From the NCBI GenBank assembly GCA_934101645.1, contig CAKORX010000003.1:69179-133178 (forward strand): 64,000 nt of DNA, written 5' to 3'. A model generated the notes under the pieces. It did not search any database. It was not told the origin of the DNA and worked only from the letters and a program-made list of their open reading frames with translations. Position numbers and translations under genes: made by a program. Source of the stretch: an uncultured Bacilli bacterium (lineage in GTDB: Bacteria; Bacillota_I; Bacilli_A; RF39; UBA660). Of the stretch, positions 57,618-63,149 are shown in pieces (positions within the stretch are counted from its first letter, which is position 1; every line of letters begins with the position of its first letter).

Positions 57618-60600
57618 GTGAGAAGTAGTATTAAGAAAATCGTATTGGTTTTTAGTGTAGTTTTAATTATGGGAGTTTTAACTTTATTTAAATATCTTAA
57701 TTCAAATAAAATAGAAAGAATTTTAAAATCTGAAAGTTATAATTATTTACCTTTAGAGGCTAAAAAATATATTGAGGATGTATATAATGAAACTGGCAAA
57801 GTTTTACTTACTGAAAAAAATAAAAAAGAAAATACGCCTTATTTAAATCCTACATTTATTGCTTATTTAACATTATCTGAAGAAGAAAAGAGCAAAGAAA
57901 GCGTTATACCAAGTTTTGAGGTAGTGGATTTTGTATCTAATGACACTCAAATTACTGACGAATTACCTACAAAATTTGATGCTAGAGATTATAATGGTAA
58001 AAATTATATAACAGAAATGAAAAATCAATATAGTACAGGACTATGCTGGGCTTTTGCAAGTTTGGAACAGATTGAAAGCTATTTAATGTTTACTCAAAAT
58101 AAACCTTATGATGAAAATAGTGAAATTTTTTCAATAAGACAAATGGATTATGCTACTTCATTAAGTGGTATTAAAAATTATACAAATGAAAATGGTTATA
58201 GAGATTTAACAAGTGGTGGAAACTATTATATGTCTTCATTAGCTATGTCTAATGGAATTACTATTGTAAATGATGAGAAAATGCCATTTAATTCAAGTAC
58301 TGATAAAAAAGAACTTTATGAAGTATTAAATTATGGAAATTCACTATATGAAGTAAATGGGACTATAGATATTCCAATAATTAATTCAAGTTCTACAGAT
58401 AAAGATAAAGAAAATTATGTAAAAACAATAAAATCAAATATTTTGAAATATGGCAGTGCTTATGTTGCAACCGGTTCTCCTCAAGGATCATGTGGAACTT
58501 ATAATAATGATGAAAGTAGTTATGTAATAAGAAATGATAAATGTGCGTATAATTCAAATTATGGCGCTCATGCAATGCAAATTATTGGCTGGGATGATGA
58601 GTATAAATATTCATTTTGCTCAAATGGTTCAAATCATATGCCATATTCTGATAGTTGTCCAGATAACTATAGTTTAGTAAGTGGTACAGGAGCCTGGTTA
58701 CTTAGAAATTCTTGGGGAACCGATGATAGTATAAAAGAATTTCAATATGTATACTTAACTTTTGATTCTCAAAATATAGGTGTAAATTTTGCTACAAAAA
58801 TCTCTAAAATGGCTGAGCGAAACTGGGATAATAATTATCATGGTAATTTATGGAAAACATCTGGAAGTGATAGTCTTTTATCAGTAGAATCAACTTTTTT
58901 AAAAAAGATTAACTCTAATGAAAAAATAGAAAAAATTAAGTTTTATACCATGGGACAAAATGGTAAGTATACATTAAATATAAAATCAGATAATTTAGAT
59001 TATACGTATAATAAAGAAATTACAACTGATTTACCAGGAATATATACAGTGGATTTAAGTAGTGAAAATATTACTATTACAGGAAATAAATTTACTGTTA
59101 CTATAAAAAGTACTAACGATGTATATTTATTAAGAGATTCTATTTCTGTATTTACATCAAATGTGGATAAAACTCCAGTTATACAAACAAGTAACATTGA
59201 TGTAAGCGAAGTTTTAAAAATAAGTGATGGAAATTATAAATATTTTATATATTCAGAAACAAAAAATATTGCCTCAAATGAAATAATCGATTATAAATTA
59301 TTAAAAGATAATACAGATTATAGTGGTTATATAGTTAAATTAGAAAATAATGTAGTGGCTGAAAATAATATTAATGCATCAATGATTTTGAATAAAGATA
59401 TTCCAGTTGGAAATTATACATTAAAAATTTCATATGATAATTATTCTTTTGATATAATTCTAACTGTTCCAGAGATTAAAACACTTCTTGGAAGTGGTAC
59501 AGAAACTGATCCTTATCAGATATATACTGAAGAAGATTTAAAACAAATACATTATTTATTAGATAAATATTTTGTAATAAAAAATGATATAACTTTAACA
59601 GAAAATTGGGAACCTATTGGTAGTAAAAATAATCCTTTTAGAGGTTCAATAGATGGCGAAAATCATACTATATATAATTTGAATATCGATAGCAATTCTT
59701 CATCAGCAGTAGGTTTTATTGGTTATTATAATCCTAAATTTAATTTCGATTATTATGATGAAAATATAAATTACAAATCATATAGAGAAAAAAGTTATGT
59801 AAAAAATATTAATTTCAGTAATGCTAGTATTTCAAATAGTGGACCTGCGGGAATATTAATTGGTATGCTACTATATGATTCTTCTTATGTAAAGGAAAGT
59901 GGAGAATTTAATTCAATGATGCATATAGAAGCTTCAAAATTTACGATTGATAATGTTTACTTTAAAGGTGGTAGCGTAAAATCTAAAATAGGGGATGCCG
60001 GAGTTATTGTGGCTAATGTTGATATAGTTCCAATTTCATATCAAACTCCATATTTAAATATTAATAAGGTTTTTTCTTCAACGGAAATAATTGGTTATAA
60101 TTCCGGAGGACTTATTGGCTATGTAAATGATAGCTACAGAAGTGGAACGGGCATAATGCTCCAAATACAGATGACCAACATTCAAAATTCTGGAATAATA
60201 AATGTAAAAGAAAACGGATTTGAATATGATGAAAATAAAAGATTTTCTCCTGTAATTGGTTATATTAATAATAATGCAAATCTTAGTATAGAAAATTTTA
60301 TTATAAATAGTTCATTTAATGATCCAAAATATTTTTCAAATTATAAAGAGTATAATAAATTATATGGATTAATAGGTTATTCCTCAAATCAATATATTCA
60401 GGTTAAAAATGGCTATTATTTAACCGAGAAATATACTTATGATAATTATTATATTAAACAAATATCCACTACGGCAGATAAAATACTTGATAAAACTCTT
60501 TATTCTGAGTGGACTGACTTTGATGATAACTGGGAATTAAAAACTATAGATGGTATACCTAGAATTCCTGTTTTAAATGGTAGTGACTTTGAATACATAA

Positions 60601-62003: not shown

Positions 62004-63149
62004 ATGAAAAAGATAAAATTAATTTTGACGGGGATATTATCATTTTTAATAATATGCTTAAATGTAAATGCTGCTAGTGCTAACTTATCTGTTAGTTCAA
62101 ATAGCGTTTATTCAGGAGATAGTTTTACAGCATATGTTAATATGAATGGAGCAGCGGCATGGAATTTACATGTTGCCGCATCAGGACCGGTAAGTGGTTG
62201 TAAGCTTGATATAGCAGACGCTACGTTAGATGCTCTTGATACAAATAAATCATTTCCGGTAACTTGCACGTCAACAGGAGTAGGAACAATAACAATTACA
62301 CTTTCTGGAGATGTAACAAGTGCAAATGATGGAAATGCAGTAAACGTTTCAGGAAGTGCTTCAGTAAATGTCACTAATAAGCCTGAACCAACACCTACGC
62401 CAACGCCAACACCGACTCCGACACCTACGCCAACTCCAAAACCATCAAATCCATCAAAACCTAATACACCAACTGCACCTACAAAAAGTAGTGATAATAA
62501 TATTAAAAATATTGAAATCAAGGACGTAAAAGATTTTAACTTTAAAAGTGATGTTACAAGTTACAATATAAGTGTTGATAGTAAAATTTCTAAACTTGAT
62601 TTAAATATAATACTTAGTGATAGTAATGCAATTTACGATGTTTATGGTAATGACGATTTTAAGTATGGTGACAATGAAATTGTAATTAAAGTTACTGCGG
62701 AAGATGGAAGCGAAAAAGAATACAAATTAATTGTAAATCGTAAAGAACCAACTTGTGATGAAGGGTTAGTATTAAAAAACATTGAGATCAAAGACTATTA
62801 TTTAAATTTTTATAAAAATAATTTTAAATATACCTTAAAAATTGCTAATGAAAATAAACTAAATATTAGTGTAGAAGCAAATGATGGTAGTACTTATGAA
62901 ATAATAGGTAATGAAAATTTAAAAAATGGAAGTGTTATTGAAATTAAAGTAAAATCAGAGGATGAAAGCGTAAGTTATATAGTTAATATTGTAAAGGAAA
63001 AAAGTCAAAATATTGTACTTACATGTGTGCTTATCGCTATAGTTTTAATTATTGTTGTAGCAATAACTATTTTACTTATTAGGATGAATAAAAATAAAAA
63101 AATAATTGATAAACAAAAAAATGATATAGATAATTTATTCAGTAAATAA
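62004..63149 (+). CDS. Type-I membrane protein: signal peptide, ~100-aa Ig-like N-terminal domain, (PT)n linker, two cadherin-like beta-sandwich domains and a C-terminal TM anchor.
   Basis: Linker PTPTPTPTPTPTPTPKP. Domains containing DVTSYNISV…YKLIVNRKE. C-terminal segment LTCVLIAIVLIIVVAITILLIRMNKNKK. Confidence 0.6.
   Translation: MKKIKLILTGILSFLIICLNVNAASANLSVSSNSVYSGDSFTAYVNMNGAAAWNLHVAASGPVSGCKLDIADATLDALDTNKSFPVTCTSTGVGTITITLSGDVTSANDGNAVNVSGSASVNVTNKPEPTPTPTPTPTPTPTPTPKPSNPSKPNTPTAPTKSSDNNIKNIEIKDVKDFNFKSDVTSYNISVDSKISKLDLNIILSDSNAIYDVYGNDDFKYGDNEIVIKVTAEDGSEKEYKLIVNRKEPTCDEGLVLKNIEIKDYYLNFYKNNFKYTLKIANENKLNISVEANDGSTYEIIGNENLKNGSVIEIKVKSEDESVSYIVNIVKEKSQNIVLTCVLIAIVLIIVVAITILLIRMNKNKKIIDKQKNDIDNLFSK

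Follow-up and report, generated by a model that had tools for sequence, protein, structure and literature searches.

What does a dockerin bind when the gene next to its own encodes an anchoring protein whose only evident receptor candidate is not recognisable as a cohesin? This question is raised by two adjacent genes in a 64,000-nucleotide stretch (hereafter the window) of contig CAKORX010000003.1 from an uncultured Bacilli bacterium of the RF39 lineage. The first open reading frame (ORF1) encodes a papain-family protease that ends in a type-I dockerin, and the second (ORF2) a membrane-anchored protein with a small all-beta head, the N-terminal domain (N-dom). Dockerins occur in many genomes that lack a recognisable cohesin; to our knowledge, cohesins are the only proven dockerin receptors. 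We consider it probable that the two genes are transcribed together as a cassette for surface display, in which the dockerin of ORF1 docks on N-dom as a non-canonical receptor, a contact that we infer mainly from the way in which the two modules travel together through genomes. The parts of the locus on which this argument turns are the following, with positions counted in the window.

57618..61991, + strand: ORF1, 1457 amino acids (aa), GTG start; multidomain protease of the papain family, predicted to be secreted, that ends in a dockerin (ORF list and Pfam).
61590..61799, + strand: conserved pre-dockerin beta module, ORF1 residues 1325-1394 (alignment; predicted local distance difference test score (pLDDT) of about 96 in the AlphaFold2 (AF2) model).
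61803..61988, + strand: type-I dockerin, ORF1 residues 1396-1457, at the extreme C-terminus (Pfam Dockerin_1 and Foldseek).
61992..62003, + strand: intergenic spacer of 12 nt with the ribosome-binding site AAAGGA; sequence TAG aaaggataaaaa ATG.
62004..63149, + strand: ORF2, 381 aa, membrane-anchored stalk protein with a candidate dockerin receptor (ORF list).
62004..62072, + strand: signal peptide of ORF2, residues 1-23, with cleavage predicted after VNA (NVNA followed by AS; translation).
62073..62378, + strand: N-dom, ORF2 residues 24-125, an all-beta immunoglobulin-like (Ig-like) head with a Cys pair and the motifs AAWN.H and SGPVSGC; candidate receptor of the dockerin.

The C-terminus of ORF1 is a canonical type-I dockerin by profile, by its duplicated segments and by its predicted fold. 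The Pfam family Dockerin_1 (PF00404) matches residues 1396-1450 of 1457 with 37.5 bits (cut-off 22.9), covers profile positions 2-56 of 57, and stops 7 residues short of the ORF1 stop codon. The dockerin consists of two calcium-loop/helix segments that are nearly identical, DINGDGITNSADLLKIRQHLIG and DINYDSIVNSADLLRIRQHLIG, each about 22 residues long, in which a D-x-N-x-D...D loop is followed by a helix (DINGDGITNSAD-LLKIRQHLIG and DINYDSIVNSAD-LLRIRQHLIG); this near-identity would fit a dual binding mode, as is known from type-I dockerins. An AF2 model of the last 158 residues of ORF1, calculated with an alignment of 34 relatives (pLDDT 89.2; predicted template modelling score (pTM) 0.78), shows the beta module of residues 1325-1394 packed on a three-helix dockerin, whose helices span model residues 107-117, 125-131 and 141-152. 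The 12 best Foldseek matches of the dockerin model in the PDB are all dockerins, mostly chains from type-I cohesin-dockerin complexes, and it superimposes on C. thermocellum dockerins with template modelling scores (TM-scores) of 0.91 (2ccl_B; root-mean-square deviation 0.9 Å) and 0.93 (1ohz_B; 0.8 Å). The pre-dockerin beta module of about 70 residues is kept ahead of the dockerin in the aligned relatives regardless of their cargo, and Foldseek found no close fold match for it in the PDB. Its packing against the dockerin in the model recalls the X-module of type-II and type-III X-dockerins.

ORF2 follows ORF1 in an operon-like layout, and a terminator scan detected no terminator on the + strand between the two genes. 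A first search returned 374 homologues, and the SGPVSGC motif is present in 119 of the 120 among the matches listed; an exhaustive profile search yielded 437 N-dom cluster representatives at 50 % identity, in which the domain almost always occupies residues 20-130, right behind the signal peptide. The loci used for comparison comprise nine from assemblies with four homologues, 25 from a one-genome-per-species collection, four that encode minimal family members, and 53 from metagenomes. In the window and in all 34 loci from the assemblies and species genomes, a same-strand dockerin precedes the N-dom motif by 220-330 nt, and the dockerin-ending gene stops 0-19 nt ahead of the start of the N-dom gene; the 560 kb of flanks of these loci hold no further dockerin or N-dom. 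In three loci the second dockerin repeat is degenerate, and the dockerin still passes the Pfam Dockerin_1 cut-off. Among the 53 metagenome loci, the dockerin motif was found in 48 and a divergent dockerin was recognised by inspection in two others (L090 and L092), while three, whose sequence ends less than 210 nt upstream, were not counted as evaluable. Taken over the 89 evaluable loci (the window, the 34 loci from assemblies and species genomes, the four minimal members and 50 metagenome loci), the N-dom gene is immediately preceded by a dockerin-ending gene in 89 of 89. The two-gene layout thus recurs in every one of them, and the arrangement of ORF1 and ORF2 is far beyond chance.

The minimal family members narrow down which part of the anchor protein matters for this linkage. 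Many short proteins of the family are of this kind: beyond a signal peptide and N-dom they have only a linker and a signal of the sortase type (NPKTG, SPNTG or NPDTG, followed by a hydrophobic stretch and basic residues), without any cadherin-like domain, and a dockerin-ending gene stands directly upstream in all four loci checked. The number of cadherin-like domains varies among the N-dom anchor proteins in general, and N-dom alone is a constant companion of the dockerin, even where a relative carries a sortase-type anchor in place of the transmembrane helix. The most divergent dockerins (NSMSMF.IRQHLLG) adjoin the most divergent N-doms, which lack the Cys residues. In the divergent pairs of L090 (3-1147) and L092 (3292-5697), an acidic tail of coiled-coil-like character takes the place of the cadherin-like domains behind N-dom.

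The strict adjacency of dockerin and N-dom is observed with a changing cargo. In a census of 32 non-redundant upstream proteins taken from the loci, Dockerin_1 was detected in 31, Peptidase_C1 in 12, Peptidase_S8 in 10 and LRR_5 in 10, and proteases are the commonest cargo (22 of the 32). The other cargo comprises Amidase_3, DUF285, SH3_3 together with a cadherin-like domain, and Lactamase_B (a metallo-beta-lactamase fold) together with choline-binding repeats; some of the upstream proteins have no recognisable cargo domain. Over 22 non-redundant pairs, the mean pairwise identity falls from 72 % in the dockerin and 67 % in N-dom to 46 % in the pre-dockerin module, 37 % in the remainder of the anchor protein and 26 % in the cargo. 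No other module of these pairs is as well conserved as dockerin and N-dom.

None of the criteria tested identifies N-dom as a cohesin. Its AF2 model (pLDDT 91.2, pTM 0.79) contains seven to eight strands in about 100 aa, whereas cohesins are nine-stranded jelly-roll sandwiches of about 140-150 aa. The best Foldseek matches in the PDB are generic Ig-like sandwiches, namely an amylopullulanase domain, macroglobulin (MG) domains of complement and of bacterial macroglobulin, CARDB (3idu; TM-scores 0.60/0.59), and TRAP-beta; the sole cohesin among the top 50 is the non-cellulosomal one from Archaeoglobus fulgidus, 2xdh, which ranks tenth (E 4.4e-4, TM-scores 0.62/0.51). Pfam and NCBIfam give no match in ORF2 residues 24-125, with none for Cohesin at E up to 0.1, and PF00963 matches 0 of the 120 homologues among the matches listed (of 374). 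A Pfam scan of 23 N-doms that admitted matches at E up to 10 hit Cohesin in a single member, at a noise-level E of 0.2; the sub-threshold matches fell to BatD/DUF11-like families (10 of 23), Big_3_5 (7 of 23) and FlgH (13 of 23), and all matches to families of the CARDB, DUF11 and Big_3 type stayed below the Pfam cut-offs. Hidden Markov model (HMM) searches of all PDB sequences with N-dom profiles of 23 and 44 sequences retrieved no cohesin and nothing significant. Alignment of N-dom with type-I cohesins by hhalign gave a probability of 0.14 %, or 0.38 % with a broader N-dom profile, against a cohesin profile that is shallow (six sequences, all type I, with only 10 close type-I sequences recovered) and whose alignment seed was verified against 1AOH (E 8e-89). 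The aligned segment is identical in both runs and pairs 'FPVTCTSTG-GTITITLSGD' of N-dom with 'VAKVKSGAP..SVIKFVEVGG' of the cohesin (cohesin residues 105-126).

These results divide the proposal from which the analysis started, a sequence-only reading of the window that saw in the two genes a possible cohesin-dockerin display pair and in the N-terminal domain of the second protein the candidate cohesin. The pairing of a dockerin-tagged protein with the anchor protein is now seen as a conserved unit in 89 of 89 loci, and comparative genomics favours a display pair; the assignment as a cohesin is not supported, given the absent Pfam match, the hhalign probabilities and the generic Ig-like fold. 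The same reading had named an N-terminal domain unlike a cohesin, together with a genome free of cohesins, as the outcome that would speak against it; the first of these two is largely what the tests returned, with a single cohesin at fold rank 10. We would class the pair as a variant of cohesin-dockerin display in which the candidate receptor is non-canonical.

Several observations weigh against a dedicated contact between dockerin and N-dom. The domain is about 40 residues shorter than cohesins and has a generic Ig-like fold, and Pfam, hhalign and the HMM searches of the PDB detect no relation to cohesins. A partial Mantel test found no co-variation of dockerin and N-dom beyond shared ancestry (r = 0.34 when the remainder of the anchor protein is controlled for; control module pairs gave 0.34-0.38). 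Furthermore, no dockerin gene adjoins that of P0309, a distant repeat protein with N-dom-like domains, so the N-dom fold predates and extends beyond the dockerin-linked clade. P0309 (L035, 10001-14413) is a protein of 1470 aa from a high-G+C organism in which six tandem N-dom-like repeats are followed by cadherin and fn3 domains; it was considered as a multi-receptor scaffoldin and rejected, being a distant high-G+C cadherin/fn3 protein with no dockerin nearby.

If N-dom is no cohesin, the dockerin might bind something other than N-dom, such as a canonical cohesin from another part of the genome, an envelope polymer or a host ligand, and ORF2 would then be a co-expressed adhesin or stalk that acts beside the enzyme and does not dock it. 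The outcome of every cohesin test run suits this explanation, as does the general knowledge that dockerins without known partners are common, in particular among non-cellulosomal ones. We nevertheless regard it as unlikely: it leaves unexplained why the dockerin, and not a catalytic or binding domain, is the constant part upstream, why proteins reduced to N-dom plus an anchor have a dockerin neighbour, and why conservation is highest in these two modules, dockerin and N-dom; moreover, a shallow profile found no type-I-cohesin-like ORF in 967 kb (the window and the loci). Somewhat less likely still is that N-dom is a true but extremely diverged and shortened cohesin, which would turn the locus into a minimal non-cellulosomal pair that works by the same mechanism. 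The canonical type-I character of the ORF1 dockerin accords with such a pair, and the rank of 2xdh in Foldseek (E 4.4e-4) and the N-dom segment aligned by hhalign in both runs point in the same direction; against them stand the hhalign probabilities of 0.14-0.38 %, the single Cohesin match at E 0.2 among 23 N-doms versus 10 for BatD/DUF11-like families and 7 for Big_3_5, the PDB HMM searches without a cohesin, the lone cohesin among the top 50 folds despite the many solved cohesin structures, and the roughly 40 residues by which the domain is too short.

We consider it very improbable that ORF2 instead serves the protease as its dedicated inhibitor, as an immunity protein or as a chaperone of its maturation, and owes its place beside ORF1 to that task. 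The prevalence of proteases among the cargo (22 of 32) would accord with such a role, but the N-dom partner also stands behind amidase cargo, cargo with leucine-rich repeats (LRRs) only, SH3 plus cadherin-like cargo, and cargo of the metallo-beta-lactamase fold; the cargo proteases come from two unrelated clans, C1 and S8, and a stalk-and-anchor architecture is unlike that of an inhibitor. Docking of the dockerin on N-dom in a co-transcribed display cassette remains in our view the probable arrangement. We propose more tentatively, as a possibility that we rate below this, that N-dom founds a new dockerin-receptor family unrelated, or at least not recognisably related, to cohesins. Together with its dockerin it would form a portable two-gene cassette that takes up different cargo (papain-type and subtilisin-type proteases, amidase, LRR proteins) and with which small-genome, host-associated bacteria such as RF39-like Bacilli and Saccharibacteria arm their surface. 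In the literature on dockerins combined with cadherin-like domains, on RF39 dockerins, and on non-cellulosomal dockerin proteases, no description of the dockerin/N-dom pair was found.

In the display cassette as we envision it, ORF1 would be exported as a papain-type protease with binding repeats, a beta module and a calcium-type type-I dockerin. ORF2 would likewise be exported and would stay in the membrane through its C-terminal transmembrane helix, while sortase-type relatives would sit on the wall. N-dom would be kept off the cell by the Pro-Thr linker and two cadherin-like spacers, and the dockerin would bind it non-covalently, presumably in a calcium-dependent manner, so that the protease is retained on the cell surface. 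If the N-terminal signal-anchor and pro-region of ORF1 are lost at maturation, it may be from then on that the tether matters most.

The remaining parts of ORF2, between N-dom and the C-terminus, form the stalk and the anchor.

62379..62501, + strand: Pro/Thr-rich linker, residues 126-166 (translation), encoded in part by a hexamer repeat.
62502..62750, + strand: cadherin-like beta-sandwich 1, residues 169-247 (Pfam PF12733, 36 bits versus a cut-off of 24.2).
62763..63005, + strand: cadherin-like beta-sandwich 2, about residues 254-334; below Pfam detection, with 36 % identity to copy 1 (E 2e-6).
63009..63146, + strand: transmembrane helix, residues 336-359, a 24-residue hydrophobic run, and basic cytoplasmic tail, residues 360-381, opening with RMNKNKK.

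The hexamer repeat detected by TRF (ACCAAC, 62387-62444) encodes part of the Pro-Thr linker, whose length varies among close homologues. A 137-aa ORF in antisense orientation (GVGVGVGV...; 62108-62521, - strand) is a by-product of the same repeat.

ORF1 is composed, ahead of its pre-dockerin module, of the following segments.

57618..57692, + strand: N-terminal basic and hydrophobic segment, residues 1-25, an export signal or signal-anchor (translation).
57963..58724, + strand: Peptidase_C1 catalytic domain, residues 116-369 (Pfam PF00112, 36.6 bits versus a cut-off of 20.7).
60969..61547, + strand: Listeria-Bacteroides (Flg_new) repeats, about residues 1118-1310 (Pfam, three stretches, 58.7 bits; TIGR02543, 26.3 bits).

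The papain catalytic set is complete by motif position, with Gln137, Cys143 (in CWAF; codon 58044-58046), His318 (in GAHAM) and Asn364 (in RNSWG). By profile and by these four residues ORF1 belongs to the Papain family Peptidase_C1 (PF00112), and its proteolytic activity is predicted. Residues 1-25 show no obvious AXA cleavage site when read from the translation. The homologues of ORF1 have the same kind of start, and its counterparts with S8 cargo also open with a hydrophobic segment and without a clear signal-peptidase site. The upstream dockerin enzymes of L018, L021 and L027 begin, like ORF1, with basic and hydrophobic residues and no obvious AXA site.

With respect to anatomy, the sequence-only reading has held up throughout. 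The C1-family active site that it had read from CWAF is supported by the Peptidase_C1 match and the four catalytic residues, its multiple Listeria-Bacteroides repeats reappear as three Flg_new stretches, and the two-segment type-I dockerin that it placed at the extreme C-terminus is confirmed by the Pfam score of 37.5 bits and the TM-scores of 0.91-0.93. It had put the second gene 12 nt downstream, and the gap is exactly 12 nt long and holds the AAAGGA ribosome-binding site; the signal peptide, beta domain of about 100 aa, Pro-Thr linker, two cadherin-like domains and transmembrane anchor that it assigned to ORF2 were all found. Of the anchoring-scaffoldin architecture that it saw in ORF2, signal peptide, linker and anchor are present; the putative receptor module cannot be recognised as a cohesin.

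Among known systems, the C. thermocellum OlpA and OlpC pairs (3ul4, 4dh2) resemble the cassette in that the enzyme ends in a duplicated calcium-loop/helix dockerin with a predicted type-I fold. ORF2 is built like single-cohesin anchoring proteins in that a single head domain is combined with a signal peptide, a linker and a surface anchor, and the minimal N-dom relatives, reduced to a head and a sortase-like signal, are similar to R. flavefaciens ScaE, which reportedly consists of a cohesin plus a sortase signal. In contrast to OlpA, OlpC and ScaE, the head of ORF2 is not a recognisable cohesin. Scaffoldins serve many enzymes each, whereas here one enzyme gene is combined with one anchor gene in an operon, and the anchor of ORF2 is a C-terminal transmembrane helix, unlike that of proteins attached through S-layer homology (SLH) domains. 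The cargo, too, differs from that of type-I cohesin-dockerin systems in consisting mostly of proteases and not of carbohydrate-active enzymes, and the hosts differ in being small-genome gut Bacilli (RF39-like) and Saccharibacteria.

Dockerins outside plant cell-wall degradation, on proteases and hydrolases, are a feature that the cassette shares with the non-cellulosomal modules of A. fulgidus (2xdh) and the toxin and glycosidase complexes of Clostridium perfringens. The cohesins of these two systems are recognised by Pfam; in ORF2 and the sequence examined none is detectable. In fold and by a weak sequence signal, N-dom comes nearest to the Ig-like surface domains CARDB, DUF11 (BatD-like) and Big_3, from which it differs by its own motifs (AAWN.H, SGPVSGC and the Cys pair) and by its fixed place after the signal peptide. 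We know of no member of the CARDB, DUF11 or Big_3-type families that binds dockerins.

For dockerins in genomes without a recognisable cohesin, the locus thus offers a concrete candidate partner, an Ig-like family of about 100 aa with 437 cluster representatives that always stands directly after a dockerin-ending gene. If N-dom is indeed a new receptor, it would account for at least some of these 'orphan' dockerins. Binding between the two modules would extend the partners of dockerins beyond cohesins, would show by what means uncultured gut bacteria with reduced genomes, and Saccharibacteria, keep large proteases at their surface, and would bear on the degradation of host proteins and mucus and on episymbiosis; the pair would also be a small new binding pair for the engineering of protein assemblies. 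Should binding fail, the strict gene linkage needs another explanation.

The region of the window is 95.7 % identical at the DNA level to CAKOMR010000001.1, a contig of a metagenome-assembled genome (MAG) from the Hadza gut labelled as uncultured Bacilli, and other carriers are labelled as uncultured Mycoplasma or Mollicutes, Bacilli, or Clostridium sp. with 1.5-Mb chromosomes. Five carriers (L023, L024, L028, L029 and L032) are MAGs labelled as Candidatus Saccharibacteria or Nanosyncoccaceae, to which L006 and L007, on unlabelled contigs, are added. The combination of a metallo-beta-lactamase fold with choline-binding repeats is the cargo of one locus labelled as Saccharibacteria. The occurrence in Saccharibacteria is due to transfer across phyla, among bacteria that have small genomes and live with hosts, or else to mis-binning. 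No N-dom was found in the collection of viral contigs scanned, and the cassette is therefore not phage-borne in that collection.

The G+C content of the window is about 25 % throughout, and the neighbouring genes are of a housekeeping kind (acetate kinase, DHH phosphoesterase, PrsA-like rotamase, PGA_cap, HIT, HerA-like ATPase and EzrA). The product of the gene downstream of ORF2 (63186-63980, + strand) is a coiled-coil protein of 264 aa that has two hydrophobic segments; it weakly matches the mycoplasma MG_279/MG_280 family of proteins with two transmembrane segments (TIGR04527, 28.5 bits versus a cut-off of 125), and its gene is not conserved beside the cassette in other loci. Four kb upstream of ORF1 lies the gene of the PrsA-like lipoprotein rotamase (52725-53765, - strand), a foldase for secreted proteins, whose link to the cassette is not kept in other loci either. 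The pair of acetate kinase and DHH-DHHA1 genes is present both in the window (49806-51966) and in L004 (1-1156), with the cassette about 5-6 kb downstream in each. The cargo is a C1 protease in the window and S8 plus LRR_5 in L004, which suggests that cargo has been exchanged at a similar chromosomal place.

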